DNA from: Gammaproteobacteria bacterium
GTDB taxonomy: Bacteria > Pseudomonadota > Gammaproteobacteria > SZUA-140
DNA: 64,000 nucleotides
Direction: 5' to 3'
Assembly: GCA_015488555.1 (NCBI GenBank)
Contig: WFNO01000122.1
Location: 12,300-76,299 of the forward strand
Part shown: positions 4,517 to 41,334 of the stretch, piece after piece
Position numbering within the stretch: position 1 is the first letter of the stretch
How the letters are laid out: every line of letters starts with the position of its first letter
Notes under the pieces: generated by a model
The model's input: only the letters and a program-made list of their open reading frames with translations
Database searches by the model: none
Told to the model about the DNA's origin: nothing
Translations under genes and position numbers: made by a program

Positions 4517-4535
4517 CACCGATCCTCCCTCATGA

Positions 4536-5789: not shown

Positions 5790-5822
5790 GCCCGCCCCTA
5801 CCACCAAAAGCTACTCAAGTAC

Positions 5823-8763: not shown

Positions 8764-8812
8764 GTTCCTCTGAAAAAACGCTGCCTTCCCTAATAAACTC
8801 ACGCAAACAAAC

Positions 8813-12761: not shown

Positions 12762-12825
12762 GACCCGCGCGCGTCCCTCGATTCCATAGCTTCGATTTCC
12801 ATTTCTGCTACAATTCCTCCCCGTT

Positions 12826-13494: not shown

Positions 13495-13497
13495 TCC

Positions 13498-16464: not shown

Positions 16465-16486
16465 CAGGCCTGGCCCATCGCTGTTC

Positions 16487-17023: not shown

Positions 17024-17035
17024 GGACGTGCCGCC

Positions 17036-18049: not shown

Positions 18050-18054
18050 GCGGT

Positions 18055-21647: not shown

Positions 21648-21693
21648 GGAAAGGCCACCTCAGCAGGTATTCACGCGAAAACGGCAAAGCGGT

Positions 21694-24131: not shown

Positions 24132-25000
24132 CAGATCACCCCCTTGTGGGCTGCCTCACTGTAGAAAGGCGTGCCGAAATAAGTCAAAAAAGCAAAGACG
24201 AAGATGCCGATAATGGCCAACGCTCCCACGTGTATTGGAATGCGATAGCTGAGGCGGGCATGCAAGGCCGCCCCCAGGAACAACCAGTTGAGAAAGGATG
24301 AGGTCTCCAGTGCATCCCAGGCCCAGTAGCGGCCCCAGGCGTCCTGAGCCCATACGGCACCCGCGATGAGCATCAAACTGTCGAAGATAAGCGCCAACAA
24401 CATGAAACGCCAAGCCATATGGTCCAGCACCTTGTCCGGTGGCAAGTGACGGAAGAAAGGCGCCACCCTGGGAATACGCCTCAAGAGAATGACACCGGCC
24501 AACCCCGAGCCTATCAGGCAAAAGGCCAGAAAGAATTTGCCGAACCCCACGTGCGCCCAAAGCCATTCGTTGTAGTAGGTAGGGGGATAGTGACTGTCCG
24601 AAGGCTCCAAGAGTAACACCCAGGTGCCCAGCACCCAGAGCATGGGCAACACCACCACCGCCGTAGGACGCAGCACCGGCAGACGCCAGTAGGCGACAGC
24701 ATATATCAATCCCAGGCTGAACAACTGACTGATAAGCAATTCGAAGAGGTTGACGAAGGGTCCATGACCGAGGCGTAACCAGCGCTCTGCCAGGGACGCA
24801 GTAAGCAAGATCACCCCACCGGTAAGTAGGGCCAGGACCAAGGACTCGTGGCTGCGGTTCACGGCTGCCCCAGCATCCCCCCCGCGGGTGCGAACGAGGC
24901 CGTAGAAAGCAGACAAGGTCGCCAGTGCATAGGCCACCAGTCCCGTATAGAGCCAGGGAAGTTCAGTAAAAACCGTTGCTTCGCTCATTTCGTTCATCAT
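24131..25000 (-). CDS. System II cytochrome c biogenesis protein CcsA/ResC-like (haem-handling W-rich membrane protein)
   Basis: WAQDAWGRYWAWDALE tryptophan-rich motif, flanking His residues, multi-TM. The ORF's N-terminal extension is rejected. ATG at 25000 overlaps the ResB-like stop. Confidence 0.85.
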   Translation of the reverse strand: MMNEMSEATVFTELPWLYTGLVAYALATLSAFYGLVRTRGGDAGAAVNRSHESLVLALLTGGVILLTASLAERWLRLGHGPFVNLFELLISQLFSLGLIYAVAYWRLPVLRPTAVVVLPMLWVLGTWVLLLEPSDSHYPPTYYNEWLWAHVGFGKFFLAFCLIGSGLAGVILLRRIPRVAPFFRHLPPDKVLDHMAWRFMLLALIFDSLMLIAGAVWAQDAWGRYWAWDALETSSFLNWLFLGAALHARLSYRIPIHVGALAIIGIFVFAFLTYFGTPFYSEAAHKGVI

Positions 25001-26034
25001 AGCTTGCCTCCGCCCCATGGTGCCGTTTCCAGTTCCGGTTCCGCGCCCTTGCGTGAGACTTCCCCGGCCTGGGGCCAGGGATGAGTGGCAAACTTGTTCC
25101 AGAAATAGGCCGCCAAACCCAGCACCCCAATGACGGCCGTGAGGAACAGCCACTGGAGAGTGGGGTCGTAGAACAGTTTGTACCCCATCCAACTGCTCAA
25201 GCCCTCGTAACGCAGCACGCCACCTGGTAGAGCCGTTGCCTGCCCCGGTAGCAATTCCTCTCGCTGTTCTCCACTGCGTAACACCAATATTCCGTGTGCC
25301 TTGCTTGGATCCAGGGTCCAAGCTTGATCCGCCTTGAGACCGGTCTCCAATTGCAACCAGAACTTGACCTCCTCCCCACCGGGAGGAGTCCACCGATTGG
25401 CCTGGCGAAAGTCGAACAGGGGATAGGAAGGCATGTGGATGGTGCCGGTCACCGGCTCTCCAGTTTCCGGGATCCAGGTAAGCACCGCAGCAAAACCTTT
25501 ATTGAATGTGGTATAAAAACGATAGCCCTCCAGTACTAGAGGTGTGTCGTCCCCCACCACGCGTCGTTCCCATCCACCCTGACCGTCAGGCACCAGCACG
25601 TGACTACGGGTGGGTCCGCGCATCATGCCTGGTCCATAATCCACCGTGAAAGGCCCCTGCACGAAGACCACCTTCTCCAACTCGCCACGATGCCAGGGGC
25701 CTTTGCGCACGTTCATGAGTTCGGCCGGATCGAAAGTACTGCCTTCCACCATCTCGATATGCGCCTCCATGTGGGTGAGGCGACCAATGGCAGCCAATAT
25801 CACAATTCCCAACAAGGAAAGATGAAAGATCAAGAGTCCAGGACGGCGGTTGATCCGGGCATTGCTCATCACCGCCGCCAGCAGATTGACGGCCAGCAAG
25901 GCCATGGGAGCCACCAACGCCCAGACGGGGGTATCCACGGGATTGTCGTAGCTGAGGGCGGCCCCCACGGCCAGCAGGGCCATGCCCAGCAAGGTGAAAC
26001 GGGTGGAGGAAAGGCGCCTCAACAAAGCGGTCAT
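24997..26034 (-). CDS. ResB/CcsB-like cytochrome c biogenesis protein (short form)
   Basis: ResB-like N-terminus (LRRLSSTRFTLLGMALLAVGAALS), TM His (LIFHLSLLGIVIL), a periplasmic domain and a C-terminal TM. Lies immediately upstream of the ccsA-like gene. Confidence 0.7.
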   Translation of the reverse strand: MTALLRRLSSTRFTLLGMALLAVGAALSYDNPVDTPVWALVAPMALLAVNLLAAVMSNARINRRPGLLIFHLSLLGIVILAAIGRLTHMEAHIEMVEGSTFDPAELMNVRKGPWHRGELEKVVFVQGPFTVDYGPGMMRGPTRSHVLVPDGQGGWERRVVGDDTPLVLEGYRFYTTFNKGFAAVLTWIPETGEPVTGTIHMPSYPLFDFRQANRWTPPGGEEVKFWLQLETGLKADQAWTLDPSKAHGILVLRSGEQREELLPGQATALPGGVLRYEGLSSWMGYKLFYDPTLQWLFLTAVIGVLGLAAYFWNKFATHPWPQAGEVSRKGAEPELETAPWGGGKL

Positions 26035-28715
26035 GGTGGATTCACACAGGCTTCGGAACTACCCAACATCCAGGTGGCACCATTGAAACCATTGCCGGGT
26101 GCCCCAGCCGAACCGCAATTGGCCTGGGTCCATTCCCCGCTGCGGGCGAACTTGCGCACCTTGAGCACAGCACCGTTGTAATACGGACCATTGTAATAAC
26201 GCGCAGTGGTGTGATTGCGCACTTGCCGGCTGCTGGCATCCCCTGCTCCGGCTGGTTCACCAGCGAGCAGCGGCGCTTCCAACCCCACGTCGTTGAGATT
26301 GGCCAGGAACACTTTGTTCTTCCACCCATGGGGAATGGCGATGTGACAGAAGGTACAGCTGAAATCAGTCACCCTGCCGGCATGCCCCACGTGCAGATTG
26401 ATGTTCCTAAAATCAAGGCAGCCGACATTCACTCCAATGTTGGTGCTGAACCCGCTACTCAGCACAGAGGCATCAGGAAACGAGGCATCACCACGGCCAT
26501 ATTGATCGTATTCGTGGCATTTGAAACAGAGATGATTGAACGGTCCCGGGGGACGCGCCTCACCAGTCTTGTCGTCCCAGTCGCCCTTGAGCAAGAAGTT
26601 GTGGTCAGAACCGTGTGGCCCCCAGGGGTAACCGTTCTCGTCATTGGGCACCACTGTCTCCGGCGCGGTGGATGAGCCGTGACAGTCGGTACAATACATG
26701 GTCTGAGTACCCACCGCGACATTGAAGGGCGAAAGCCAGTCATCGGCATTCGCCTTGCGCACCTGGGGCGTGCGCCCGGTGGGTTTGACCACTGGATGCC
26801 AGGAGCGGTGATTGTCCGTCACCCAGTTCACACAATTGCCGTCCTTGTCCCGATAGGCCGGTACCGTACCGCCCGTCTCCACCGTGGAATCCGGCTCATT
26901 GGGATCGATGAGCATGGTACATTCGCCCACGCTGCCAGCGAAAGCTCCCGTCGGCGTAACAGGCGTGCCTTCTCCCATGTGGTCGTCGGGCGACTGGAAT
27001 TCCATGGCCTGGTTGGTGTACTGGAAGAGGGCGTTGGTACCTGGCGGCGTACCACCCACAAAGGAACCCAGCATGGGCGGTTGATCATAGGTGTAGTTGG
27101 AATGGCACTTGAAACAGAGTTGGTACTCGCGGGTGAGATAGGGTGCGCTGACATCGGTGCTGCCGCCCGTACCGGGATCGCCGCGTTTCACCTCGAAAGT
27201 CACCGGCTCGCTGCCGAATTCGGTGGAACCGTAGACAGGCTCCACGCCCCAGATGCCCCGCAATACCCCGGAAGCCAGATTGGTATGCGGCACGCCATCT
27301 TCGTGCAGATGGGTACCGGCGGGATCGGGCACGGTACTGTCCGCGTTGAACAGGCGGTTACGCGTCACCCGATGGGGATTGTGGCAATCGGTGCACTCGA
27401 CATGGCGATTGTTGAGATTGCCCTTACCCAAGTTCTCCGGCGCCTCGATGAAATCCTGCCCCCGCCGGTCTCCTTGGGTTGCCGTGCTGCCCGTACCGAT
27501 GCTGTGCACCTCGGTACCTGCGGGCTGATCCGAGCTGGCGATTGGCATTCGCCGCGCCATGGTGGTGAAATCGGTCTTAATGTCCGGCACCTCGAAAGAG
27601 AAATTAGTACTGGGATTGACCTGCCCCTGCAGTGTGTTGCCGTCGGCGGAATGGCAGGCATAACATACTTCTTCCACCGCTGGATTGCCGCCCTGTTTAT
27701 AGCGGGCGCCGTCCGCCGTGGTGAACACGGGGCCATCGGTACCCTCTCTGAGTAAGCGCCTTGCTCCCTGAACTGTGTGGGGATCGTGGCAGTTGAGACA
27801 AGCAGCCTGCCAAACGCGCAGATCACGGGGAAATTCGCGGAGATCGGCAGCGGCATCCGTATAACGTTCGTCGGCCACGGCGGGATGGGCGTGCGCCGAC
27901 CCCACCCAGCCGTCTTTATCGTGACAGGCCAGACAAATGATGTCGTTGTCACGATCGAAACGCCCATCCACCGGCTCTTGTTTCTGGAAGCGGTTGACGC
28001 GCAGGAACTTGATGTTCTCTCCGGGCACATCGGAACGCAGGTGCGGATCATGACATGTGATACATTCCACCTTGCCATCCTCCAAAGGCAGATAATCTCC
28101 CTGCGGAGCGGCCGGCGGGCTGCCACGGGTGCGCTCGTTGATGTGGGCCACCACTGCCGGATCGAACAATTCTCCATCCCGAGCCGCCTGACTGCTGTCA
28201 TAGGTAAAAGAAATAGGATGGTCGTTGCTCAGATCCACTCCCAGGCGACGCGTAAAGCCAGTGGTTTCCCCCAACCCTTCGGGAATGGTGCCATCGGCCT
28301 TGGTGCCGGTGAAGGGAATGTTGGGATTCTCGATACGATTGAGCACGTTGACCGCGCCCAGGGCAATGGTGCCGTCATGACAGGACAGGCACAGTTTGGA
28401 TTTTCCGCCTGGCTGCCCCAGATCCGTGGCATCCAGCGATGTAGAACTGAAGGGAATATAGGTGGCGGAAGACAGCTGGCGGTTCCACAGGGGTGCCGCC
28501 TGTTCCGGTGTGGCACCGTGGGGAGTGTGGCAAAAGGCACAGATCTGGGATTCACTGCTGGCGTGGGCCTGGCGTTCAACCCCTTGAGGAACGACGGTGG
28601 CGGAGAAATTGTGCTTGGTATTGCTGATGTCGGAGATGATGTCCGCCCAGACCACCCCAGGCCACGGCAACAACATCCACACTAAGCCCACCGCCAACAC
28701 CCACGGACGCTTCAT
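26031..28715 (-). CDS. secreted undecahaem c-type cytochrome (~895 aa) with an N-terminal doubled-CXXCH module
   Basis: Eleven CxxCH motifs counted (CAFCH, CLSCH, CITCH, CLACH, CLNCH, CYACH, CTDCH, CFKCH, CTDCH, CFKCH, CTFCH). Signal peptide MKRPWVLAVGLVWMLLPWPGVVWA. The N-terminus NTKHNFS...CAFCHTPHG...PLWN...CLSCHDGT is paralogous to the start of 37730..38566. Confidence 0.88.
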   Translation of the reverse strand: MKRPWVLAVGLVWMLLPWPGVVWADIISDISNTKHNFSATVVPQGVERQAHASSESQICAFCHTPHGATPEQAAPLWNRQLSSATYIPFSSTSLDATDLGQPGGKSKLCLSCHDGTIALGAVNVLNRIENPNIPFTGTKADGTIPEGLGETTGFTRRLGVDLSNDHPISFTYDSSQAARDGELFDPAVVAHINERTRGSPPAAPQGDYLPLEDGKVECITCHDPHLRSDVPGENIKFLRVNRFQKQEPVDGRFDRDNDIICLACHDKDGWVGSAHAHPAVADERYTDAAADLREFPRDLRVWQAACLNCHDPHTVQGARRLLREGTDGPVFTTADGARYKQGGNPAVEEVCYACHSADGNTLQGQVNPSTNFSFEVPDIKTDFTTMARRMPIASSDQPAGTEVHSIGTGSTATQGDRRGQDFIEAPENLGKGNLNNRHVECTDCHNPHRVTRNRLFNADSTVPDPAGTHLHEDGVPHTNLASGVLRGIWGVEPVYGSTEFGSEPVTFEVKRGDPGTGGSTDVSAPYLTREYQLCFKCHSNYTYDQPPMLGSFVGGTPPGTNALFQYTNQAMEFQSPDDHMGEGTPVTPTGAFAGSVGECTMLIDPNEPDSTVETGGTVPAYRDKDGNCVNWVTDNHRSWHPVVKPTGRTPQVRKANADDWLSPFNVAVGTQTMYCTDCHGSSTAPETVVPNDENGYPWGPHGSDHNFLLKGDWDDKTGEARPPGPFNHLCFKCHEYDQYGRGDASFPDASVLSSGFSTNIGVNVGCLDFRNINLHVGHAGRVTDFSCTFCHIAIPHGWKNKVFLANLNDVGLEAPLLAGEPAGAGDASSRQVRNHTTARYYNGPYYNGAVLKVRKFARSGEWTQANCGSAGAPGNGFNGATWMLGSSEACVNPP

Positions 28716-29794
28716 GATTCCCCCCAGTCCCTCAAGTACTCGAATATCATCACGCGACCGTTGAAGGCATCGGCCACATAGACCCACCCGCGGTGGTCGG
28801 TCCACACACCCGCAGGCAGATAAAACTGCCCAATGCCATTACCCGTCCCGCCGATCGGCAGCAGGAACTCCCCTTTCTCATTGAATATTAACAGATGATC
28901 GTAATAGGATTCCACCACGTACAGATTGCGGTCCTGATCAACGGCCACGCCCTTGGGACGCGGCAGATCGCCAAGATAGAGCCCGCGGCGACCTACACTA
29001 CGCACGAAACGCCCCTCACGATCGAAGACTTGCACCCGGGAATTGAGAGTGTCTGTCACATAGAGTCTTCCGTCGGCGAAGGTCAAGTAAGTAGGAGCAT
29101 TGAATTCTCCCGGCCCATGTCCTCGCCGCCCCCAAGTAGCCACCAAAACACCGTCCCGGTCGAAGACCTTCACGTCGTGGGCCTTGCTGTCCGCCACGTA
29201 GATGAGTCCACTCACCGGATCGCGGGCCACGCCCACGGGACGCTGCAGAACGCCTTCCCCCATGCTGCCCTGGGGCTTGCCCTGCTCGTTCAAGATCACC
29301 ACGCGCCGCAGGTCCGCGTCTGCGACAAGTATGTATCCCGGCTCACCCGCCGTCACACCCAAAGGCGTGAGAAAATGCAAATTTGCTCCGGCCTCCTCCC
29401 AGATCTGCAGACCGTCTTTCGGATCGAAGACGTATACCGCTGCTCGGCTCACATCACTGACATAGATCCGCCCACGCGCATCGGTATACCCCCCCTGCGG
29501 GCGCTGCAGGACACGCGGGCTATGCGGTCCTGTAGCCAAGCCCACCAGCCAAGCCAATACCTTGCGACCGACAGCGGTCCGTTGGCCACGGTAATTTTCC
29601 TCGCCGGTCAATTGTCCCATGTAGCGATAGCGAGGGCGCTCAGGTGGCGGTGGCCACACCGGCGGGGCATCGTCCAGCTCATCAAATCGCAAAGCAGAAC
29701 TGGGGCCGCCGGCACACCCTCCGGCCAATATCAGGACCACCACCATGAAACCGGCAGCCACACCCCGCGTCAGAGAGGCAAGACGGCAAGACAT
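28712..29794 (-). CDS. NHL-repeat six-bladed beta-propeller lipoprotein
   Basis: Lipobox LAGGC. Repeated blades of the form G-F-x-x-P-x-G-V-A-V-D-x-x-x-x-L/I-Y-V-x-D, with an NHL/N(S)R-V-Q-V-F motif recognisable in at least one blade. ATG overlaps the upstream stop (ATGA). Confidence 0.8.
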   Translation of the reverse strand: MSCRLASLTRGVAAGFMVVVLILAGGCAGGPSSALRFDELDDAPPVWPPPPERPRYRYMGQLTGEENYRGQRTAVGRKVLAWLVGLATGPHSPRVLQRPQGGYTDARGRIYVSDVSRAAVYVFDPKDGLQIWEEAGANLHFLTPLGVTAGEPGYILVADADLRRVVILNEQGKPQGSMGEGVLQRPVGVARDPVSGLIYVADSKAHDVKVFDRDGVLVATWGRRGHGPGEFNAPTYLTFADGRLYVTDTLNSRVQVFDREGRFVRSVGRRGLYLGDLPRPKGVAVDQDRNLYVVESYYDHLLIFNEKGEFLLPIGGTGNGIGQFYLPAGVWTDHRGWVYVADAFNGRVMIFEYLRDWGES

Positions 29795-30807
29795 CACTGC
29801 ACGCGTGGCGTTTCCGCCCGTTCTAGATTTTGGCGTGTAGCCTCTAGAACCTGGATGCGACCATTCATGGCATCGGCCACGTAGAGCAGGCCACCTTCCA
29901 GCCAAAGATCGGCAACGCGCTTGAACTGTCCGGGCGCAGTTCCGGAACGTCCCACAGAAAAACGGTAATGAGTGCCCTCGAAGACCCGGATGGTGTCGGT
30001 GAGATAATCGCCGACATAGGCCCAGCCGCGGGCATCCACGACGATGGAAGTGGGAAAAATCACCGTATCCTTCTCGAAAGACGCGAGAGGACCGCCGTCA
30101 GGCGCTATCACCTGAACCCGGGATTCTCCATAACGTGTGGCCACATAATAGCCTTCCGGCCCTAGGGCGAAGGCAGTGACGCCACGAAAACGCCCCGGGC
30201 CTTCTCCGCGCTCTCCGATGGCACCGCTGAGCAACCCCGCCCGGTTGTAGACCAGCACGTCGTCGTTGAAACCATCTGCGATGTACAAGGTACTGGTGGC
30301 CTCGTCCACCACCACGGCCACCGGCCGCCCCAGGTTGATGCGGTCCTCATAGACACGAATCAGGCGGTCGTCGCGGTCGAAATACAAGACCCGGCCACCG
30401 TCGAAATCGGCTAGATAATAGGAAAGATCGGAAGCCACGTAGATATCGGACACCGTACCGCTTACCAAGCGGCGCAAATCCTGAAGGATACGCAATTCTC
30501 CGCGGTCCCGACGATAGAGCAACACCTGTTCCAGGCCTTCGTCCACGATGTACACCGCAGGCCCGCGAGCAGCTACGGCCACGGGGCGGACGAGCCGCAC
30601 ATATTCCAATCCCGTGAGCAGATTACCGCCTCGCATTCCACCATCGATCACTTCCCATACCACAGGCTGTGTGCCAAGGGCACTTCCCGCGGCATCTCCG
30701 GAAGCGGGCACGGAACCCGGCTTCATAGCGCCGCAGCCGGCGGCAAACAGGAAAGCCGCTACGGCGATCAGCGCAACAATCTCGTTTCGTTGGGAACAGA
30801 ATGACAT
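29794..30807 (-). CDS. NHL-repeat beta-propeller lipoprotein (paralog)
   Basis: Lipobox LFAAGC. Blades YIADGFNDDVLVYN and LYVADAMNGRIQVL. Start 30807 overlaps the upstream cytochrome by about 40 nt, so it is somewhat uncertain. Confidence 0.72.
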   Translation of the reverse strand: MSFCSQRNEIVALIAVAAFLFAAGCGAMKPGSVPASGDAAGSALGTQPVVWEVIDGGMRGGNLLTGLEYVRLVRPVAVAARGPAVYIVDEGLEQVLLYRRDRGELRILQDLRRLVSGTVSDIYVASDLSYYLADFDGGRVLYFDRDDRLIRVYEDRINLGRPVAVVVDEATSTLYIADGFNDDVLVYNRAGLLSGAIGERGEGPGRFRGVTAFALGPEGYYVATRYGESRVQVIAPDGGPLASFEKDTVIFPTSIVVDARGWAYVGDYLTDTIRVFEGTHYRFSVGRSGTAPGQFKRVADLWLEGGLLYVADAMNGRIQVLEATRQNLERAETPRVQ

Positions 30808-31415
30808 CGGCCGCAATTCATGGTGGGGGGAAAGGCCACGTTCCCGTGACAGACTCCGCAATACTCTCCCTGGATGATGGCAGACATGGAAACGGGATTG
30901 GCGCCCTTCTGGGGAATAAAGATGAGCGGATGGCAATTGGCACAGGTCAGCCACTCGGTGTGCTGGCGGTGCGGGAAACGCACGTGCGGCATGGAGGCGG
31001 TGTCCTTGAAAATGATATCGAAGTCCACTGGAAACATATCTCCCTCACCGTCCACGGACTTGCGGGGATCAATGAGCCCCATCTCCAGAGTCTTGACCCA
31101 GTCGATGATACCCTGGGAATCACGTGGAAAATTGGCCATGGCTTCGTAGGGTTGCTGCAACACCGCCACTGCCTCACTCGCAGGATCGTGAATGCCATCC
31201 TCAGCGATGGGCACGATGTCGCCTGTCAACTGAAAGTGCTTGCCGCGCGACCAGAACGGCTTAGCCACATCGGCCGGATTCTGCAAGAGCTGCGGGGTCT
31301 TGGCTGGCGTGGCGGCCATGGCTATCGGCCATACCGGAAGGAAAATGGCGAGACACACGGCCCACAAGAGCCTCAAACCGCCGCTCACTCGTTTTCCACT
31401 TTGGCACCCGTTCAT
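30768..31415 (-). CDS. periplasmic trihaem c-type cytochrome (family A)
   Basis: CANCH, CGVCH and CGRCH, signal peptide. Paralog of 33399..34064, sharing DGIHD...FPHRQHTEWL.C.NCHP.IFIPQKGAN...CGVCHG.VAFP. Confidence 0.8.
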   Translation of the reverse strand: MNGCQSGKRVSGGLRLLWAVCLAIFLPVWPIAMAATPAKTPQLLQNPADVAKPFWSRGKHFQLTGDIVPIAEDGIHDPASEAVAVLQQPYEAMANFPRDSQGIIDWVKTLEMGLIDPRKSVDGEGDMFPVDFDIIFKDTASMPHVRFPHRQHTEWLTCANCHPLIFIPQKGANPVSMSAIIQGEYCGVCHGNVAFPPTMNCGRCHSVPNETRLLR

Positions 31416-31548: not shown

Positions 31549-33279
31549 CTAGCGGACTCCCGCCAGACGCAAGGCTCGCTGAATGTGGGTCGTCGCCCCT
31601 TGCAGCATGAGTATGGCCGTCTTGTAATCCCCCTTCGCTGCGGTGGGCAAGGCCTGCGCCTTGATGCCTTTTGCCTTTTCCACGAAACGGTTCATCAACT
31701 CCACCGTCTGCGGTGAAGGACGCCGCTGTTCGATGGCCAGCGGAATCAGTTCCTCGTAACTCTCGTAACGCGCCAGCTCGTATTCGTACTCTTCCTTCGG
31801 CGTCTCAAAGACCAACTCATAAGACATAGTCTCCTCGTGGAGCATATCGGTCAAGGCATTGTTGAGGTCCTCCTGGGCCCGCGAGAGGACTTGCACGGCT
31901 TCGGCGTAATCACCCTCCTCGGCCAGGCGCCGGGCCTCGGTCTTGGCGGCCTCGATGCGTGCTACGTCCAATTGCGGAATCTCCTTGCGGTGGCGCTGCT
32001 TGCTCAGGCGCTGGTAATTGCGCTGGTAAGAGGCCTGAAAGGTCTCTACGCCTTGGAGTAATTCTTTGAAGCGCTCCTGCAAGGCAGCCTGATCACTCTC
32101 GGCAGGCACGCGCCGGGAGGCTTCGCTCATAAGACGCAGGGATTCGTCTACCAACGCCAGGGCCTGTTCGAAATGTTGCTCGTCGAAAGCCGCACGTGAG
32201 GCCTGCAGCTTGTCCCGGGCATCGCGTAGAAATCCTTGCGCCACGGTATTTCCGCTGCCCTCGATACGACGGGCAGCGCTGGATTGATTGACGAACAGCT
32301 CGGCAAAGGCCAGTTTCTGCTGCACCTGCCCTTTACTCACACGAGGACGGTCTTCAAGGGCCGGAGCGGCAGCGACAGCCGGGTGTGCAGGGGTCGCCGC
32401 CAGTTTCACCTTCACATGGTCCTCCTCTCCCTCATCGACGATGTGGATGACACCGCCCATGTTCTTGTGATTGCGACACTGGTAATACAATACGTCAGGC
32501 GCGGAAGCATCTGGCGTAAAGGTGACCACACCGTTGTAGGTGAAATTACCCTCCACCCCTTTGGAATAGGTAGCTGCCCCCCAGCCGGTCTCACTCCGAG
32601 AGAGATAGAAGTCGTGCTGGACGTTGGTGTTCACTTTGAACGTATAAGTCTTGCCGCGCACCAGGATCAGAGACTTTCCTTGCACACCATCGACGATAAA
32701 ACCATATTTGTCGCCCACCCCATAGTAGGGATGCGAGGGATCCTTCAACCCCAGCGTCACCTGAAACACAAAGGGATTGACGTCCTCCTTCTGCACCACG
32801 GGTGCTGGTTGCCGTCCAACAGGTGCCGATGCCACGTCGCGATCGGCAGCAAGGACGGATGGAGACTCCCCAGATATCGATTTTTCAGATGCTGATTCTT
32901 CCTGCTCCGCAGCCTCCGCGACAGCGGATTGTGCAGCGGCCACCTCAGGCTCGGTGGCCGCCGGCACACCCGAATCCGCCTCAGGAATCGCGCGCCCCTG
33001 TCCAAGAGGCTCGAACCGTGCAGATTCCGGGACTGGAGCAGCCTCGACCACCGGCTGGGATTCCAGAACCAACTCCCGCTCCGGCTCGGACTGTATTTGT
33101 TGCGATGCGGGAGCAGATATCGGTGCAGCCGCGGGCGCGACCGTCTCCGCAGGTGGCGCCTGGTCAACAGGCGCTGGCATCTCCTTGCGCGTAGCACAGG
33201 ACACCAGCGCCAGGCCAAGCACAAGAGCAAGTGCAGGCACGACCACGTGCAAGTCTTGGGCTGCACCCCGACTACGCAT
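31549..33279 (-). CDS. lipoprotein with Ala/Pro/Glu-rich linker, cupredoxin-like (amicyanin-type Cu site) domain and C-terminal alpha-helical domain
   Basis: Lipobox LALVSC. A disordered low-complexity region of about 150 aa. Candidate type-1 Cu ligands: H in NVQHDFY, and C, H, M in YYQCRNHKNMGGVIHIV (compare the amicyanin C-x-P-H-x-x-M motif). Coiled/helical C-terminal half. Start is 33279 or 33291. Confidence 0.6.
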   Translation of the reverse strand: MRSRGAAQDLHVVVPALALVLGLALVSCATRKEMPAPVDQAPPAETVAPAAAPISAPASQQIQSEPERELVLESQPVVEAAPVPESARFEPLGQGRAIPEADSGVPAATEPEVAAAQSAVAEAAEQEESASEKSISGESPSVLAADRDVASAPVGRQPAPVVQKEDVNPFVFQVTLGLKDPSHPYYGVGDKYGFIVDGVQGKSLILVRGKTYTFKVNTNVQHDFYLSRSETGWGAATYSKGVEGNFTYNGVVTFTPDASAPDVLYYQCRNHKNMGGVIHIVDEGEEDHVKVKLAATPAHPAVAAAPALEDRPRVSKGQVQQKLAFAELFVNQSSAARRIEGSGNTVAQGFLRDARDKLQASRAAFDEQHFEQALALVDESLRLMSEASRRVPAESDQAALQERFKELLQGVETFQASYQRNYQRLSKQRHRKEIPQLDVARIEAAKTEARRLAEEGDYAEAVQVLSRAQEDLNNALTDMLHEETMSYELVFETPKEEYEYELARYESYEELIPLAIEQRRPSPQTVELMNRFVEKAKGIKAQALPTAAKGDYKTAILMLQGATTHIQRALRLAGVR

Positions 33280-33398
33280 GATCACTCTCATTAGTATCGA
33301 ATGCTACTGCCGCAGCCCTACTGCTGTCTCAATCCATACCCACACGCCGCTCGGCCTTTTATTTTGATCAAGACAAACGATGATGTTGCTCCCCAGGT

Positions 33399-34064
33399 TT
33401 ATTTCCAAGGATTCTTCAACGTCGCCTCACTGAGTGGCGGTTGCCAATCCGCTGGCTTGGGCTTGGAGTGGCACTTCTTGCATGTCTTGGTTTCGATAGG
33501 GAAGGCCACCTTGCCATGACAAACACCACATTTCTGCCCCAGGAGAATGGCCGACATGTTGATCTGGTTGGCCCCCTTCTGGGGAATGAAGATAGCCGGA
33601 TGGCAATTGGAACAGAGCAGCCATTCCGTGTGCTGGCGATGCGGAAATACCACGTCGGGTACAGAAGCCTTGACCGGCCGTACGATGTCCAAATCCATCA
33701 CGAAAGGCTCGGCATTAGAATCGAGCAAGTCCCAGCGTGGCTTGATCAGCCCCTCATCCAGGGCCTTGACCCAATCTACGTGGTTGCCAAAACTAGTCCT
33801 GGGCAATCCCTCGTATGCCTCCAAAGGAGGCTGCAGATTGAAAGTGGCCTCGTTGGTGGTATCGTGGATACCGTCTTCCCACGGTGGCGCATTCGGGTTT
33901 TTGGGTTTCTTCAGATTGAGGTTGAAGGTGTTGGCCGCCGATACCTCTCCCATCATCAACAACCCCTGAATCGCGTTACCGGCTGCCGGTACCGAAGTAC
34001 TCCAAACGGCGGCGATCAGCAGCACAGCGCTGGAAACGATGACGAACCCGTTCTTCAAACTCAT
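33399..34064 (-). CDS. periplasmic trihaem c-type cytochrome (family A paralog)
   Basis: CSNCH, CGVCH and CKKCH. Signal peptide. GGGGAGAG RBS. Confidence 0.82.
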   Translation of the reverse strand: MSLKNGFVIVSSAVLLIAAVWSTSVPAAGNAIQGLLMMGEVSAANTFNLNLKKPKNPNAPPWEDGIHDTTNEATFNLQPPLEAYEGLPRTSFGNHVDWVKALDEGLIKPRWDLLDSNAEPFVMDLDIVRPVKASVPDVVFPHRQHTEWLLCSNCHPAIFIPQKGANQINMSAILLGQKCGVCHGKVAFPIETKTCKKCHSKPKPADWQPPLSEATLKNPWK

Positions 34065-34088: not shown

Positions 34089-34535
34089 TTATTTGTTGTC
34101 GGCGGTCTTCTTGGCAGGCAGGGGCTTGTAGGCCGGTGCTACCAGACGTTGTAGAGTGCTGCCATGGAAATGGGTAGGGGTACCCGGAATGCCCGAATGG
34201 CACATGGCACAGTTCTCCACCGACCAGGCCACCTCACCGTTGTGGCAGGCACCACAGAACTTGCCGTCGATGATCTTGGCCATGGTGATCTGATTGCCAC
34301 CAGCCTTGAATTTAAATCCGAGATCGGCATGACACACCTTACAGCGGAAACGGATGCGATGGAACCAATGAGGGAAAACCGCTGGGCGCATACCGGCGGC
34401 ATCGGAATAGTTGTTGATGACGACGTCTCCGTACTCGGCCTTCGAAGGTTGGGCCACCCCTGCGAACAATAAGACCGCGAAGGCTCCCAAAACGAACGGT
34501 TTCCATGCCCCCCTGTGCTTGATCTTCAGTGCCAT
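34089..34535 (-). CDS. small trihaem cytochrome c (cytochrome c3/c7-like)
   Basis: CKVCH, CGACH and CAMCH within 148 aa. FPHWFH...IDGKFCGACHNG pattern. GAGGAGAGG RBS at an internal ATG. Confidence 0.82.
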   Translation of the reverse strand: MALKIKHRGAWKPFVLGAFAVLLFAGVAQPSKAEYGDVVINNYSDAAGMRPAVFPHWFHRIRFRCKVCHADLGFKFKAGGNQITMAKIIDGKFCGACHNGEVAWSVENCAMCHSGIPGTPTHFHGSTLQRLVAPAYKPLPAKKTADNK

Positions 34536-34725: not shown

Positions 34726-36543
34726 TCAAAACAGGCGGTTCACCTGGAAATAGATCAGGCTGAAACTCTGGTCCTCTCCTCCTCCTCCGGTCAGATCGAA
34801 ATAGCGCCAGCTCATTCTCAACCGGGTCAAACCAATGGTGTAGTCCAGGCGGTTCTCCCATTCGAGACGATCCATGTTGCCCGACACGTCCGTGCGGGAG
34901 AGGCGCAGATCCGACAGGAAACGCAATCGCGGTACACCAAACACCGCACTGTGGGTGTAATTCAACTGCCCCGTTCCCGTTACTCTATCATTAACCCCCT
35001 GGCGGTTGAAGTCCTGGCTCACGTACTGGATGGTGAGATTACCTGTCAGATTGCTGAGCCGGTCGAGATAGCGGGTCCGCTGAATCTGGAAATTGACAAA
35101 CTGTTGATTGCCTTCCTGATCCCCGAAGGAACGGCCATCGGAGAGGGTCACTTGCAAAAAGCTGGTGGCCTCCGGGGAAGAAGCGTCCCAGGACAAACTG
35201 CCCGAATTGTCCAAGCGTTGCACCGAGGTCTCTACATCACCCATCTGTTCGTCACCGCTCACTGTCTGACTGAGGCTCAGGCGGATATTGGAACGCCGGC
35301 CGATCACCCACAGGCGCTGAATATCGTGCCCCAGTTTGAGCAGAAAGGATTGATCCTGGCGCTGTGGTGCGTCTCGCGCACTGGCCGTACCCTGGGTATA
35401 CCACTGATAGTTGAACCCAGACCAGAGAGGGCGAATGTCCGACTGATAGAGAGCGCCGGCGCGGCCCCTAGAAATGAAATCTGCACCGTCGCCGTTGTCA
35501 CTGCTGAGCACATCGACGTTGGCATCGAAACGCAGGTTGCGGGTGTACTGATAGAACATTCCACCAGTAGCGCTGAAATTGGTGAGTTCTACCTCGTTGC
35601 CCACCGTATCGGCCTGTAGCCCATAGAAGCGCACCCCTCCACTCAGGGTCAACGGCCGATCCAAGGGCCGCCAAAACACAAAGCTGGACAATTGCGTCAG
35701 ATCGGTGTCGCTGTCGGGTTGATTGGTACTATTGAGCGGCTGTTTCGATTCGTAATCGGAATTGTAGATGTTGAACATGGTATCCAGCCGCAAGGCACGG
35801 TTGGGAAAGTAGAAATGATCCACATTGAGAATGAAGGTATCGGTCTTCTGATCGATCACGGAGCGTTCGCTGCTCTGGATGCTGCTCTTGGCAATCAAGG
35901 TCTGCTTGGGCATTTTCAGATCCGCCTCCACACCGAACAGCTGGTCCCGGTAATTCTCTCCGCCCGGTTGCTGCTGCTCCCAATCGTTGCGGTCATAACG
36001 CAATTGGAAGCGGTGTCCCTTCTGAGTGTAGAAGGATTGCTTCAGCGATAGGCGACTGGTACGGAACTCGGTGCTGCCCAGGGTATTCAAGGGACTGGAG
36101 CGGGCCACCAGGTCCACCCGACTGTCGCTGGCCTGGTAGGTAAGCAGGAAAGGGGTGCGACTACGGGGCAGTATGCTCAGGTTGAGGTTACCCGTGAGGA
36201 TGGAAGACTCGTTGGAGCTACTTCCTTCGAACTCGGATTTGTCCCAAGTGAAGCGCAAACCGGTATCGGCAGTGGCCAGCCAGGGCCTGCCGAGATAACC
36301 TTTGAGATTGAGGCCCCCCTGTAACTGATTGCTGACGGTATCTTCCTGGCCGGTGTTGTCCAAGGCGCGAAAGGTATATCCGAGGTTGCCGGAAACATCG
36401 GTAAGGGCAAAGGCCCACGCGCACACGGACCAAGCCCACAGGCAGCAACCGCAAGCCAAGCGCAGCAACTCTACCCCCGCTTCCGAACCTCGAAATCGCT
36501 GACCATTGCCCCCGGCACAGACCCGCGGGCTGCTCCATCTCAT
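34726..36543 (-). CDS. large outer-membrane beta-barrel protein (~600 aa, MtrB/PioB-like size class), no haem motif
   Basis: Signal peptide ...AWAFA. Alternating amphipathic beta-strand pattern throughout. C-terminal ...YFQVNRLF with a terminal Phe, typical of OMPs. Confidence 0.7.
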   Translation of the reverse strand: MRWSSPRVCAGGNGQRFRGSEAGVELLRLACGCCLWAWSVCAWAFALTDVSGNLGYTFRALDNTGQEDTVSNQLQGGLNLKGYLGRPWLATADTGLRFTWDKSEFEGSSSNESSILTGNLNLSILPRSRTPFLLTYQASDSRVDLVARSSPLNTLGSTEFRTSRLSLKQSFYTQKGHRFQLRYDRNDWEQQQPGGENYRDQLFGVEADLKMPKQTLIAKSSIQSSERSVIDQKTDTFILNVDHFYFPNRALRLDTMFNIYNSDYESKQPLNSTNQPDSDTDLTQLSSFVFWRPLDRPLTLSGGVRFYGLQADTVGNEVELTNFSATGGMFYQYTRNLRFDANVDVLSSDNGDGADFISRGRAGALYQSDIRPLWSGFNYQWYTQGTASARDAPQRQDQSFLLKLGHDIQRLWVIGRRSNIRLSLSQTVSGDEQMGDVETSVQRLDNSGSLSWDASSPEATSFLQVTLSDGRSFGDQEGNQQFVNFQIQRTRYLDRLSNLTGNLTIQYVSQDFNRQGVNDRVTGTGQLNYTHSAVFGVPRLRFLSDLRLSRTDVSGNMDRLEWENRLDYTIGLTRLRMSWRYFDLTGGGGEDQSFSLIYFQVNRLF

Positions 36544-36558
36544 CGAATCACCTTATTG

Positions 36559-37623
36559 TTATTCGGCCCCGACTAGCAGAGCTTCATTGATCGTTATCGG
36601 TGTTTTCCTGCGCAATTCCTCCAGCAGGCTTTGCCAAGCCTGTGCCTTGCGCTCCTCACTCAGCATCAGGCGAGCCCTGGCCTCACTGCGTGCGAAATCG
36701 TTGAGTTGTGGTGGCGTGCGTGCCTCCAACCGAAACAAGGCATATCCCTGCAAGAGACGAATGGGGGCCGACACCTCTCCCGGAGCCAGCCCATCTACCA
36801 CCTCTTGAGCCTCGGTAGACAACATGCCGGCATGGACATAGCCCAGATCTCCTCCCCGAGCCGCCGACTCGTCAGAGGAATGCGCGCGTGCCAGCTCAGC
36901 GAACGAAGCCCCTTCCGCAAGTCGCGCCAATAGCTCCTCCGCCTTCTGCCGGGCCGCTTCCCATTCCTGCGGTGGCGCCCAAGGCGGTACACGCAACAGG
37001 ATCAACGACAGATGCAGGCGTTGGGGAGTGGTGAACCGTTCGGGATGGGCTTCGTAATAGGCACGCACGGCCGCCCGATCAGGCTCCGGCAAGTCTTCCA
37101 CCTCGTCTTTCAAACGCTGGATGCGACTTTGGGCTTCCAGTTCCTCCCGCAAAGCCTGCAGCAACTCTTCGCGCCGCTCCTCCCAGTGAGGCAAGCGGCG
37201 GTAACGCTCCTGTACCATTTCCAACTGCGCCTTCACCCAACCTCCGTCGGGTTCGATGCCCCGGCGTTGTGCCTCTTGCAGGAGCAGGCGTCGATCGACG
37301 AGGCGCTCGGCTACTTCGCGGCGAAAAGCCAGACGCTGGTCCTCCGGCACTTTGCCGTGATAGAAGCGCTGCCGATAGGCCGCATGCACATTGACCCGGA
37401 ATTCTTCGGCGCTGATGATCTCCTCCCCTACGGTGGCCAGAATCCCGTCGCCGTCAAGAGCGGCCTGGGGTGCGGCTCCCTCGGCGGGCACCACCCACAG
37501 CAAAGTGCCAAGCCAGCATCCGACCACCACCGACCACACCCATCGTCCGGTTCGGCCCCTCCAACGGTCCAGACGGCCCCAGGATACTCGGGCCGCCCAC
37601 GGGAGTTGCAGCCCCCCATTCAT
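36559..37623 (-). CDS. SurA/PpiD-like periplasmic chaperone with PpiC (parvulin) PPIase domain
   Basis: GGDLGYVHAGMLSTEAQEVVDGLAPGEVSAPIRLLQGYALFRLE parvulin core. Strong AGGAGG RBS at the internal ATG 37623. Confidence 0.8.
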   Translation of the reverse strand: MNGGLQLPWAARVSWGRLDRWRGRTGRWVWSVVVGCWLGTLLWVVPAEGAAPQAALDGDGILATVGEEIISAEEFRVNVHAAYRQRFYHGKVPEDQRLAFRREVAERLVDRRLLLQEAQRRGIEPDGGWVKAQLEMVQERYRRLPHWEERREELLQALREELEAQSRIQRLKDEVEDLPEPDRAAVRAYYEAHPERFTTPQRLHLSLILLRVPPWAPPQEWEAARQKAEELLARLAEGASFAELARAHSSDESAARGGDLGYVHAGMLSTEAQEVVDGLAPGEVSAPIRLLQGYALFRLEARTPPQLNDFARSEARARLMLSEERKAQAWQSLLEELRRKTPITINEALLVGAE

Positions 37624-37729: not shown

Positions 37730-38566
37730 TCACTTGTTGTGGCAGGTCAGGCACACTGCACTACCACTGGGATCGATGCGAAGGAAAGTGGGATTGTAGT
37801 CCACGTGTGGATCGTGACAGGAGGCACATTCCACGTAGGGCTGCGGCTCACCGGCAAAAGCCCCTTTGGTCCCCACCCGGGTATAAAGTTTCATGTCAGT
37901 ACGCTCGAAGTCTGAGGTACTACCTTCTACCTGGGTGTTGACCCACCATATCCGGCGTGTGCCGACAATCTTGGTCTCGGCTGGATTGAAATCCTTGTCG
38001 CGGCCCGGTCCCTGGGGATTGGATTCGGAATAGCCCCCGCCTGCATACTGCACGCTGATGGGATGGTCATCGGTAAGATCCTTGCCCAGATTGGTGATCA
38101 CCGTCACTGGCCCGATGCGGCCGTTCACTGCGGCGGCCTGGCCACTCCACACGCCGCTGGAAAAGGCATAATTGTCTGCGCCAGAACCCGGTTCGTTGAT
38201 CATGGCATCCATGGCTTGGGTGCCATCGTGACAGGAGAGACAAGCGATGGACACCGAACCGATAGGCTCGATCTGGGCATCCAGGGTGGTACTCCCGCCC
38301 TGGTCGTAGGTCTGGAATCCCGTAGGATCCAGGTAGCGGTTCCATAGCGGCACCGCCGCCGAGGCATCTCCTCCATGGGGGGTATGGCAGAATACACAGA
38401 TCTCAGTGGTACCGCTGAAATTACTGGCGGCATTGACGCCCATGCTGCCGAGATTGTGTTTGGTGTTGGCAATCCCCGCTCGCACCTCCTGAGCAACCCC
38501 TGACAGCATGAGTGCCAAGATGAAGGCCAAGGCCGTCATCCACGTTGGCCTGGCGGCTGGCCGCAT
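37730..38566 (-). CDS. tetrahaem c-type cytochrome with doubled-CXXCH module (paralog of the N-terminus of the 11-haem protein)
   Basis: CVFCHTPHG, CLSCHDG, CASCHDPH and CLTCHNK. NTKHNLG...PLWN motif. Signal peptide MRPAARPTWMTALAFILALMLSGVAQEVRA. Confidence 0.8.
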   Translation of the reverse strand: MRPAARPTWMTALAFILALMLSGVAQEVRAGIANTKHNLGSMGVNAASNFSGTTEICVFCHTPHGGDASAAVPLWNRYLDPTGFQTYDQGGSTTLDAQIEPIGSVSIACLSCHDGTQAMDAMINEPGSGADNYAFSSGVWSGQAAAVNGRIGPVTVITNLGKDLTDDHPISVQYAGGGYSESNPQGPGRDKDFNPAETKIVGTRRIWWVNTQVEGSTSDFERTDMKLYTRVGTKGAFAGEPQPYVECASCHDPHVDYNPTFLRIDPSGSAVCLTCHNK

Positions 38567-38948: not shown

Positions 38949-40103
38949 TCAGATGCCGCGCTCGAATCGGAAACGCAGGCCCAGAGACAACAGGCGCAGG
39001 TCTTCACCGGCGGCGGGCAGCAAGGGAGCGGGATCGTCGGCATCGGCCACCAGGCCGTAGGCCGCCCCTTTTTCGTTGCGCACCGCCACATAGCGGGCAT
39101 ACCAGGCCAGGCGGGGTGAGAGGGCATGATCGAAGCCCAGGGCGCCGAATACCGCGCCGCTGTCGGGCAGGCCGTCCAGGGCCTCCAGGTAGGCCCCGGC
39201 CAGGCGCCAGGTCACATTGCCCAGGACCTGATCGAGGGCCAGGTGATAGGCGCGGCGGCCCACCGTCCGGCCGCTCAGGCGGGCGCCGTTGGTGGCCTCT
39301 TCCAAGAACAGGTCCAGGCGTGTGCCCTGGCCGAAATCCCAGCCCAGGACCAGCTTGCGCGCGGCGGCATTGCGATGGTCCGCCGCGGCGAATACCGCCA
39401 GGTTGGATTCGTAGCGCTGGAGTCGCTCGTAGGCCAGGGCCAGATACAAAGGCCCCCGATCCAGGATCAAGGCGGCGCTCGAAGCCCGGCGATCCGGCCC
39501 GTAGGCAGGCGTGGCGGCCAGGAGCAGCTGGACACCCTTGAGACGCGGCGTCTCGTAGCTCACCAGATGCGGCAGGCGGTTACCGAAGACGGGCTCGCCG
39601 TTCAGATTGCCCATCACCGCGTGGATGTCCGCCCGGGTGTCGGCGAACCCATCCAGGCGGTCACCGGCGCGGCGATAGGGCGTGGCCTGGCGCCCCACCC
39701 GCAAGGTGCCCAGCCGATGGCGCAGGCCTGCATAGGCCTCGCGCCCGCTGCTCCAGCCGCCCTCATCCAGATCCAGGTAGACCTCGGCACGCCACAGCAG
39801 ATCCAGATGCTCGCGCACGCCTTCGCGCCCGCGAAAGCCCAGCCAGGACCGATTGCCGTTCACCGCCAGCGGCTCGTCCTCGTCGGGTCCGGGATAATCC
39901 CGGGTATTCAGGCCGTCCAGAGATACCAAGGCCTGGCCGTAGAGTGCCATTTCCGCAGCCCGGCCGGCCAGCGGCACGCTCAAGACACAGGCGGCCAGTA
40001 CCCATCCCAGCACCCATCCGAACAGCACCCGCCAGCCCATTCGGGGGCGTTCTCCGCCGGGCATGCGCGGGCGGAAACCGTACTCAACTCGACACCACTC
40101 CAT
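38949..40103 (-). CDS. outer-membrane porin-like beta-barrel protein
   Basis: AAGGAG RBS, signal peptide, alternating beta-pattern, ends LRFRFERGI. Family assignment (general porin versus phosphate-selective porin O/P) is uncertain. Confidence 0.55.
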   Translation of the reverse strand: MEWCRVEYGFRPRMPGGERPRMGWRVLFGWVLGWVLAACVLSVPLAGRAAEMALYGQALVSLDGLNTRDYPGPDEDEPLAVNGNRSWLGFRGREGVREHLDLLWRAEVYLDLDEGGWSSGREAYAGLRHRLGTLRVGRQATPYRRAGDRLDGFADTRADIHAVMGNLNGEPVFGNRLPHLVSYETPRLKGVQLLLAATPAYGPDRRASSAALILDRGPLYLALAYERLQRYESNLAVFAAADHRNAAARKLVLGWDFGQGTRLDLFLEEATNGARLSGRTVGRRAYHLALDQVLGNVTWRLAGAYLEALDGLPDSGAVFGALGFDHALSPRLAWYARYVAVRNEKGAAYGLVADADDPAPLLPAAGEDLRLLSLGLRFRFERGI

Positions 40104-40374: not shown

Positions 40375-41334
40375 TCAGGGCAGCTCGGTGATGAACTGCG
40401 CCAGGAACTGCGTGCCATCCAGGCCGCCACCACCATCGGCATCACGATCCTTGTACTCCAGAGCGATTTGCAGATTGCTGCCGGCCTGCCAGGCGCCATA
40501 CAAGGTGATCGTGCTGGGCTCCACACCGCCATCGTAGGACTCGGCCTCGTAACGGCCGCGCACGACCACACCGTTGCCGAAATCATAGCCACCCCAGATG
40601 TTCCAGACGGCATCCACGATCTCGGCCGCCGCCAGGTAGTCGAAGCCCACTTCACCGCCACCGCCGAGGTTGGTCCAGGTACCGTTGATGTCCCAGACGT
40701 TGCCGGCACCCCCTAAAAGCGGATTGTCGTTGTCCTGGGTCACGTAACCAAACTCCAGATCCAGGTCCTGCATGGGCGTGACGTTGAGCACCACGGCCAG
40801 GGAGTTCTCCTCGGCCACACCGCCGATGTCGTTCAGGTAGGCCACGGTGCCGGTGACCATACCGGAACTGCCGGACAGCGCCACACCCGCCAGGTTGTTG
40901 CCATAGAGCGCGGTCTGATCATCGAGGATCTCGAATACCATGGAATGGGTGATGAAGCGGATCTCGTTGACGTCCTCTTCCTCGGCGCTCATGGGGTTGT
41001 TGAACACGCCGCCGATGAGGCTGAGCTGTTCCGTGAGCCCCCAGGAGAAGAAGGCCTGCTCAATACGGGCCGAATCACCACCCAGGGCATCATTGACACC
41101 GTCCAAGGCCAGATTCACATCCAGGTCGAGACGCGCCGTCACGCCATCGGCGGGGCTGGCGATGAAGTCCACTTCCCCGTTGGCCGAGAAGGACTTTTCG
41201 CTTGTAGGGGCCTCGTCGTCGGTCACGGTGTAGAGAATCTCGGCGAAGCCGTCCACCTTCACATCGTCCGCCTGCGCAGCCAGGGGCGCGGCAAAGGCGC
41301 CGGCGACGGCCAGTGCGATCAGTCTTTTTTTCAT
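40375..41334 (-). CDS. acidic Asp/Gly-rich outer-membrane porin-like protein
   Basis: GGGAGAG RBS. Signal peptide MKKRLIALAVAGAFAAPLAAQA. Amphipathic strands and numerous D/G-rich loops. Confidence 0.55.
   Translation of the reverse strand: MKKRLIALAVAGAFAAPLAAQADDVKVDGFAEILYTVTDDEAPTSEKSFSANGEVDFIASPADGVTARLDLDVNLALDGVNDALGGDSARIEQAFFSWGLTEQLSLIGGVFNNPMSAEEEDVNEIRFITHSMVFEILDDQTALYGNNLAGVALSGSSGMVTGTVAYLNDIGGVAEENSLAVVLNVTPMQDLDLEFGYVTQDNDNPLLGGAGNVWDINGTWTNLGGGGEVGFDYLAAAEIVDAVWNIWGGYDFGNGVVVRGRYEAESYDGGVEPSTITLYGAWQAGSNLQIALEYKDRDADGGGGLDGTQFLAQFITELP

Follow-up and report, generated by a model that had tools for sequence, protein, structure and literature searches.

Electrons are presumed to cross the outer membrane of uncultured electrode- and iron-oxidising Gammaproteobacteria by way of uet (undecahaem electron transfer), a cluster of multihaem-cytochrome genes from 'Candidatus Tenderia electrophaga' and other Tenderiales arranged in the order uetABCDEFGHIJ-ccsAB-nrfG (Eddie et al. 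2022, bioRxiv 10.1101/2022.05.06.490989). In that work UetC was predicted with PRED-TMBB2 to form an outer-membrane barrel of 28 strands, compared with 26 in MtrB; the pore measured about 5 nm in the model, and it was proposed that UetC could house an electron-transfer protein as MtrB does MtrA. Gallionella (PMC10734462) and Leptothrix (PMC13386937) have also been credited with Uet, listed there among predicted porin-cytochrome complexes. We analysed a window of 64,000 nucleotides from an uncultured gammaproteobacterium (contig WFNO01000122.1, positions 12,300 to 76,299) and found that the open reading frames (ORFs) at 36559-37623 and 34726-36543 are uetB and uetC of such a cluster. The host belongs to a gammaproteobacterial lineage distinct from the Tenderiales carriers.

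Other described systems resemble this locus in part. MtrB of the Shewanella MtrCAB complex (6R2Q) is, like UetC, a very large haem-free barrel among multihaem cytochromes. Clusters that encode OmcE, the subunit of a cytochrome nanowire, always include a large barrel in their core, for which a role in 'secretion or anchor' was proposed (Petersen et al. 2025, bioRxiv 10.1101/2025.10.22.684050). In Geobacter sulfurreducens, the nanowire subunit OmcS is likewise accompanied by an operon, osc, whose products are proposed to act in folding (OscH) and secretion (OscE/F/G), according to the summary of Shen et al. 2025 (Cell Chem Biol) in PMC13194489. Its subunit family is OmcS and not OmcE, and we set it beside uet by description.

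On the minus strand of the window, domain scans and haem counts gave the order tetrahaem cytochrome, peptidyl-prolyl isomerase (PPIase), barrel, two c7-type cytochromes, cupredoxin-like protein, third c7-type cytochrome, two NHL propellers, 11-haem cytochrome, ResB, CcsA and tetratricopeptide repeat (TPR) protein. From UetA through CcsAB to the TPR protein this matches the published uet order gene for gene. Because of this match, and because UetC had been predicted in the published cluster, the pair identified here is a correct rediscovery of UetB and UetC. Both were already named and published, with roles that are predictions. The name uetC rests on gene order and predicted strand count, the reference protein (ALP54624.1) being likened to ours by description. 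The genes of the cluster are as follows.

37730-38566, minus strand: UetA, tetrahaem cytochrome of 278 aa with four CXXCH motifs, homologue of the OmcE nanowire subunit; counted from the start at 38566 it is as long as the called orthologue
36559-37623, minus strand: UetB, periplasmic protein of 354 aa with a SurA-type N-domain and a single parvulin domain, AGGAGG ribosome-binding site, both catalytic His replaced
34726-36543, minus strand: UetC, haem-free outer-membrane beta-barrel of 605 aa with 28 predicted strands, a signal peptide and a terminal Phe
34089-34535, minus strand: UetD, small c7-type trihaem cytochrome directly 3' of the barrel gene (TIGR04257, 1.5e-18), start codon and ribosome-binding site identified
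33399-34064, minus strand: UetE, c7-type trihaem cytochrome extended at its N terminus, three CXXCH motifs (TIGR04257, 1.6e-17)
31549-33291, minus strand: UetF, predicted lipoprotein of 580 aa (LVSC lipobox) with a cupredoxin-like segment carrying C-x2-H-x2-M
30768-31415, minus strand: UetG, c7-type trihaem cytochrome (TIGR04257, 2.7e-18)
29794-30807, minus strand: UetH, NHL beta-propeller, predicted lipoprotein with a lipobox in its sequence (Pfam NHL and DUF5128)
28712-29797, minus strand: UetI, NHL beta-propeller lipoprotein (Pfam NHL, 4.8e-21)
26031-28715, minus strand: UetJ, 11-haem cytochrome with 11 CXXCH motifs, its N-terminal ~270 aa an OmcE-like tetrahaem module
27816-28715, minus strand: the N-terminal OmcE-like tetrahaem module of UetJ, four CXXCH motifs and four distal His conserved
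24997-26034 and 24131-25000, minus strand: ResB/CcsB and CcsA, system II cytochrome c maturation (Pfam ResB and Cytochrom_C_asm), start codons identified
23418-24131, minus strand: TPR protein, NrfG-like (Pfam TPR families), last gene of the conserved module

The predicted UetC barrel

UetC comprises 605 aa without a single CXXCH motif and ends in ...FQVNRLF, the terminal Phe being conserved across 90% or more of the 63 family members. AAGGTG stands ahead of its ATG at 36543, and the uetB stop codon lies 15 nt upstream. We modelled the protein with AlphaFold2 from an alignment of the 63 sequences, which yielded a mean predicted local distance difference test score (pLDDT) of 86.6 and a predicted template modelling score (pTM) of 0.65. 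An N-terminal helix at residues 21-42 closes in A-W-A, a cleavage motif consistent with a signal peptide. It is followed by 28 consecutive strands as assigned by DSSP, with connections mostly of 2-8 residues and with neither a plug nor an extra domain. Hydrophobic and polar faces alternate in nearly every strand; the lumen-facing parity comprises 50 charged and 108 polar among 210 residues, and alignment columns vary less on this side than on the lipid side (mean column entropy 1.45 versus 1.69, Mann-Whitney p = 0.005). The model directly supports the fold and the strand number, indicating that UetC is a single large 28-strand outer-membrane barrel. Its backbone radius would be about 25 Å, for a diameter of about 5 nm, as computed from barrel geometry (n = 28, shear about n + 2) and not from coordinates. 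A haem-free barrel of roughly 600 aa with a signal peptide and a terminal Phe is what the original prediction had described; it had also placed the protein in the size class of conduit barrels rather than among 16- to 18-strand porins, which agrees with a count well above 18.

No Pfam or NCBIfam family matched the window protein. Models for MtrB_PioB, LptD, TonB-dependent receptors and FadL detected none of the 63 family members at E ≤ 1, and a search of all PDB sequences with the family profile returned no match at E ≤ 10, so that the lack of sequence kin among known barrels is directly supported as well. In a Foldseek comparison with the PDB, the best solved structure was MtrB (6r2q_B, E 4e-9, TM-score 0.43), with TonB-dependent receptors, FimD and LptD close behind. 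The likeness to MtrB and PioB first proposed for this protein thus shows in the structural ranking, at a TM-score of only 0.43, and in the multihaem cytochrome cluster around the gene, and fails at the level of sequence models. That the protein is not an LptD, a FadL or a TonB-dependent receptor was upheld, as no family member matched those models and the model contains no plug. Compared with MtrB, PioB and MtoB, UetC has 28 rather than 26 strands, shares no sequence homology and has no MtrA-type decahaem partner.

A word-indexed search retrieved 81 UetC homologues, all from uncultured Gammaproteobacteria, with E values down to 0; none bore the accession ALP54624.1. An exhaustive HMMER search delineated a family of 891 clusters at 50% identity, 597 of them at E ≤ 1e-30. 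Given the numerous barrel homologues and the synteny of the pair, both ORFs can be taken as real genes and not as frames open by chance. Relatives of UetC with N-terminal extensions were considered as possible fusions with a cytochrome domain, which was rejected: the 144 representatives contained no CXXCH motif and their extensions were rich in Ala and Pro.

Conservation of the cluster and its link to OmcE

We compared 43 loci from other genomes that are GTDB species representatives, 42 of which were informative for UetB. The order rpsI, two porin genes, uetA to uetJ, resB and ccsA was nearly invariant, a synteny that is directly observed. Median identities to the window proteins were 70-78% for UetA, UetD, UetE and UetG, 63% for UetJ, 47% for UetB and 44% for UetC. 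More distant relatives, whose barrels are 24-27% identical to UetC, keep the order OmcE-like cytochrome, PPIase, barrel, c7. In such loci UetD is still 71-78% identical (L047:4447-4782; L048:3147-3554). This small protein of about 115 aa is therefore unusually constrained and is a candidate for a direct partner of the barrel or the wire.

UetA matched just two solved proteins, OmcE of G. sulfurreducens (7tfs, E 2.7e-22) and the OmcE bundle of Desulfuromonas soudanensis (9yuq, E 3.2e-24). The N-terminal ~270 residues of UetJ matched the same two entries, with an E value of 4.5e-18 for 7tfs over residues 26-231. In an alignment of Geobacter OmcE, UetA, one distant UetA and the N-terminal part of UetJ, the four CXXCH motifs and the four distal His were invariant, making up eight His and eight Cys; the eight His ligands of UetA include that of the N-terminal NTKH. 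Since UetJ starts with a complete OmcE-like module, the cluster encodes two OmcE-type modules, and from its sequence UetJ could be the base, the tip or an adaptor of a UetA polymer. In two distant uet-like clusters (L049:5710-7557 and L050:1539-3386), an additional OmcE-like cytochrome of 226 aa and an NHL propeller are encoded just upstream of uetA, a pair that echoes the NHL-omcE pairing of Geobacter.

The G. sulfurreducens omcE locus contains ppcA, resB, ccsA, genes for two multihaem cytochromes and an NHL propeller, omcE itself, and a gene for an unannotated barrel of 752 aa, matching the core that Petersen et al. report for omcE clusters. Its propeller lipoprotein (L045:8338-9423) is 33% identical to UetI (E 2e-54). 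The omcE clusters of Geobacter and D. soudanensis and the uet cluster thus have in common an OmcE-family tetrahaem cytochrome, an NHL propeller lipoprotein, other multihaem cytochromes, a very large barrel encoded beside the subunit, and ResB/CcsA. In contrast, the Geobacter cluster lacks a PPIase, a clustered c7 trio and the cupredoxin-like protein, and additionally has glycosyltransferases. The barrels differ too. AlphaFold2 predicted about 34-36 strands for the Geobacter protein (L045:10863-13121; pLDDT 87.5), versus 28 in UetC, and its top PDB match was again MtrB. The two barrels are without detectable homology. Orthology between them was tested with hhalign and discarded, with probabilities of 0.5% for profile against sequence and 3% for profile against profile; we keep the comparison as an analogy. 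The Geobacter barrel exceeds in size every barrel among its PDB matches, and its family has at least 262 homologues and no Pfam domain.

The subunit, the propeller and the maturation genes are thus common to uet and the omcE system, while uet has another, smaller barrel and, in addition, a PPIase, three c7 cytochromes and a cupredoxin-like protein. Tenderia and Uet are not mentioned by Petersen et al. (bioRxiv 10.1101/2025.10.22.684050), nor is OmcE in the uet preprint (bioRxiv 10.1101/2022.05.06.490989). New here, on the strength of sequence comparisons, are the homology of UetA and of the N-terminal part of UetJ to OmcE, that of UetI to the Geobacter propeller, the non-homology of the Geobacter barrel, and, for UetB, the loss of the catalytic His and the loss of the gene in one clade.

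UetB, a degenerate parvulin

UetB matched the Pfam families Rotamase (PF00639, 1.4e-18, 68.1 bits) and SurA_N_3 (PF13624, 7.8e-08, 32.8 bits for a cut-off of 27.2), and an AGGAGG motif precedes its ATG by 6 nt. A SurA-like parvulin gene with such a ribosome-binding site, adjoining the barrel gene upstream, had been predicted and is indeed present. All scores against the NCBIfam equivalogs were far under cut-off. As the orthologues carry ordinary Sec-type signal peptides and lack a conserved lipobox, we place UetB in the periplasm as a soluble protein; the VVGC of the window protein had suggested a lipoprotein, which was ruled out because this Cys is not conserved among orthologues. In having a SurA-like N-domain followed by parvulin and in being exported by Sec, UetB resembles E. 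coli SurA, PpiD and PrsA-type proteins. Unlike SurA, which has two parvulin domains, it has a single one.

Neither catalytic His of the parvulin domain is present in the window protein or in any of the 35 orthologues, which have Leu, Thr or Met at the position of His8 and Ala or Val at that of His84, while Asp is retained at the position of Cys40. The positions are those of an E. coli Par10 reference sequence. The parvulin domains of SurA-P1 and PpiD are inactive and of the chaperone type, and the His loss of UetB is similar. Because both catalytic His are lost, UetB probably acts as a holdase or chaperone in the biogenesis of the module and not as an isomerase.

The uetB gene lies directly upstream of uetC in 34 of the 42 informative loci. 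In the other eight it is absent, and 260-490 bp separate uetA and uetC. These eight loci (L019, L024, L026, L028, L030, L031, L032 and L040) form one clade in the UetC tree, which indicates a single loss of uetB with retention of all other uet genes. This clade of eight species representatives is a natural experiment on the need for the PPIase. A mirror-tree analysis gave correlations of UetB divergence of 0.90 with UetH, 0.86 with UetF, 0.81 with UetJ and 0.81 with UetC. Co-evolution specific to UetB and UetC is not supported on this basis, as UetH, UetF and UetJ correlate as strongly as UetC does. A search of the uetA-uetB interval for an intrinsic terminator that might serve as a pilin-like attenuator yielded only a weak hairpin with no U-tract, so this candidate was dropped.

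Being widely syntenic, lost once and not UetC-specific in its divergence, UetB is a long-standing yet dispensable accessory whose client may be either the barrel or the coil-rich cytochromes. The original prediction, by which the parvulin gives the barrel dedicated folding help, is no more than plausible. It is favoured by the adjacency, which persists down to 24-27% barrel identity. It is weakened by the loss of uetB in the eight-species clade, by the replaced catalytic His and by the non-specific divergence, and a cytochrome client is equally possible.

Proposed roles and genomic setting

We think it likely that UetC forms the outer-membrane sheath of a cytochrome conduit running from the extracellular OmcE-type cytochromes to the periplasmic c7 cytochromes, and that UetB is a biogenesis holdase. 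The outer membrane would hold UetC as one barrel of 28 strands with a backbone diameter of about 5 nm. As a barrel so wide, without a plug and with such short loops, cannot stay open, we infer a partner protein in its lumen, most likely at least one multihaem cytochrome encoded beside the barrel. A path of haems spanning the outer membrane would thereby link extracellular UetA and UetJ with periplasmic UetD, UetE and UetG; the direction in which electrons flow along it, like the lumen occupant and the client of UetB, is our deduction. The arrangement would follow the principle of MtrA inside MtrB, where a cytochrome runs through the barrel, but with a barrel that is larger and unrelated. UetB would aid the biogenesis of the module as a SurA-like holdase.

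Several points weigh against this conduit. The pTM of the UetC model is only 0.65, and closure of the barrel is read from that model. UetC has no sequence homology to MtrB/PioB or to the omcE-linked barrel of Geobacter. No gene for an MtrA-type decahaem cytochrome adjoins the barrel gene; the DmsE-family match on UetA reached 28.5 bits for a cut-off of 192. UetB is missing in eight of the 42 informative loci, and the role of every Uet protein is so far a prediction.

It may be that UetC is chiefly an export or anchoring port for a filament of OmcE-type UetA, working in the manner of an usher rather than as a static MtrB-like sheath, with the OmcE-like N-domain of UetJ joining the polymer, UetH and UetI assisting at the membrane and UetB keeping the subunits assembly-competent. 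We regard this as rather unlikely, and it is compatible with a conduit, the two being non-exclusive. UetA has all eight His ligands of its OmcE homologue, the OmcE-like module of UetJ is complete, the propeller lipoprotein of the omcE cluster is a homologue of UetI, and omcE clusters always have a large barrel with a proposed role in 'secretion or anchor' (bioRxiv 10.1101/2025.10.22.684050). PMC13194489 likewise reports the proposal that osc supplies folding (OscH) and secretion (OscEFG) for OmcS. Periplasmic c7 trihaem cytochromes charge OmcS wires directly, which parallels UetD, UetE and UetG. However, UetC is smaller than the non-homologous Geobacter barrel (28 versus about 34-36 strands), cytochrome wires are 4-6 nm wide and would be tight in a lumen of roughly 3.5-4 nm, and a UetA filament is hypothetical. 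That UetC merely sits among cytochrome genes and serves as an ordinary large channel for the diffusion or uptake of, for instance, Fe(II) or a solute appears very improbable. In favour of it, UetC has no haem site and no detectable homology to characterised conduit barrels, and a pair of ordinary porin genes is found just upstream. Without a plug, however, a 28-strand barrel whose loops span 2-8 residues would be a hole several nm across. Its lumen face is more conserved than its lipid face, and its position among cytochrome genes is invariant in the 43 loci and in distant relatives.

The client of UetB may be a cytochrome (the OmcE-like UetA, UetJ or a c7 protein) and not the barrel, the adjacency to uetC reflecting operon order. 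To this we give appreciable weight, while holding it for the less probable case. Solved OmcE subunits of G. sulfurreducens and D. soudanensis, which are homologues of UetA, consist of about 80% coil and turn (bioRxiv 10.1101/2025.10.22.684050), and an Osc protein is proposed to fold OmcS, again according to PMC13194489. The uetB gene lies between uetA and uetC and adjoins both equally, and the divergence of UetB tracks UetH, UetF and UetJ as well as UetC. On the other hand, the uetB stop codon is just 15 nt from the uetC start, and the Geobacter omcE cluster does without a PPIase gene. Proteins with a SurA-type N-domain and parvulin, such as E. coli SurA, are classic chaperones of outer-membrane barrels.

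A further reading, which we put forward as speculative and on balance doubtful, is that uet is an OmcE-type nanowire system adapted to electron uptake in Gamma- and Betaproteobacteria, with a UetA polymer outside the cell and UetJ bridging it to UetC. In that case the N-domain of UetJ may dock on the polymer through the shared His-haem interface, its seven-haem C-terminal part may plug the barrel, and periplasmic UetD, UetE and UetG may collect the electrons. The degenerate parvulin UetB may keep the subunits or the barrel assembly-competent.

Around these genes the window resembles the Tenderiales locus, which has the same gene content and order from UetA to CcsAB and the TPR protein, a 28-strand barrel with the PPIase directly upstream, and bat genes nearby. 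In Tenderia, batD, batB and batA directly follow nrfG (bioRxiv 10.1101/2022.05.06.490989). In the window, by contrast, the TPR gene is followed by inserted genes for DsbA (22663-23370) and a LuxR-type response regulator (21694-22437), which separate uet from the bat genes, and the bat genes are on the opposite strand. They encode a Bat-like protein with VWA and TPR domains (17968-19881, plus strand) and BatD (19461-21647, plus strand), convergent with uet. The G+C content is 0.72-0.73 at 16000-21650, versus about 0.60 elsewhere in the window.

Within the cluster, UetF gave no significant Pfam or PDB match; the uet paper called it a cupredoxin (bioRxiv 10.1101/2022.05.06.490989). After its lipobox come a long linker rich in Ala, Pro and Glu, a short cupredoxin-like segment and a long helical C-terminal half. 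The segment carries ...QHDF... and YYQC-RN-H-KN-M, a His...Cys-x2-His-x2-Met pattern that recalls type-1 copper sites.

Two genes resembling general porins (38949-40103 and 40375-41334, both minus strand) lie between rpsI and uetA; one matches Porin_4 and the other no Pfam family. In most of the 43 related loci such genes are found at this same place, and some loci have three copies. The first porin-like gene is followed by a strong GC hairpin with a T-tract that resembles a terminator (40306-40287, minus strand). Cytochrome c maturation is doubly represented in the window, by system I (CcmC-like, CcmF, CcmH and CcmI/CycH) at 6926-13500 on the minus strand and by system II (ResB/CcsA, 24131-26034, minus strand), embedded at the end of the uet cluster. 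Also on the minus strand are genes for a cyclic di-GMP (c-di-GMP) protein with HAMP, PAS, GGDEF and EAL domains (336-2897), two 'Reg_prop' propeller proteins (3134-5807) and an NrfD-type membrane subunit (60421-61872). These c-di-GMP, Reg_prop and NrfD-type proteins are possibly regulatory and quinone-linked partners of the electron-uptake pathway.

The crossing of the outer membrane by electrons in electrode- and iron-oxidising bacteria is known experimentally for Mtr/Mto and Cyc2 only, and the Uet module is widespread, with none of the 891 barrel clusters at 50% identity covered by Pfam or NCBIfam. Proteins annotated as 'hypothetical' can now be named, and a family model for UetC would be worth building. 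The interest of the locus lies more in the connection with OmcE than in the pair of barrel and chaperone with which the analysis started. The homologies of UetA and UetJ to OmcE and of UetI to the propeller join the uet and omcE literatures, which are separate in the uet preprint and in Petersen et al., and point to a small, testable set of genes, uetA, uetB, uetC, uetD and uetJ. The module also bears on the question of how cytochrome nanowires are exported and anchored. If uet is indeed a nanowire system adapted to electron uptake, UetC would represent the first outer-membrane port of its kind, compact, assisted by a PPIase and serving a cytochrome wire, and would have arisen independently of the barrel in Geobacter.

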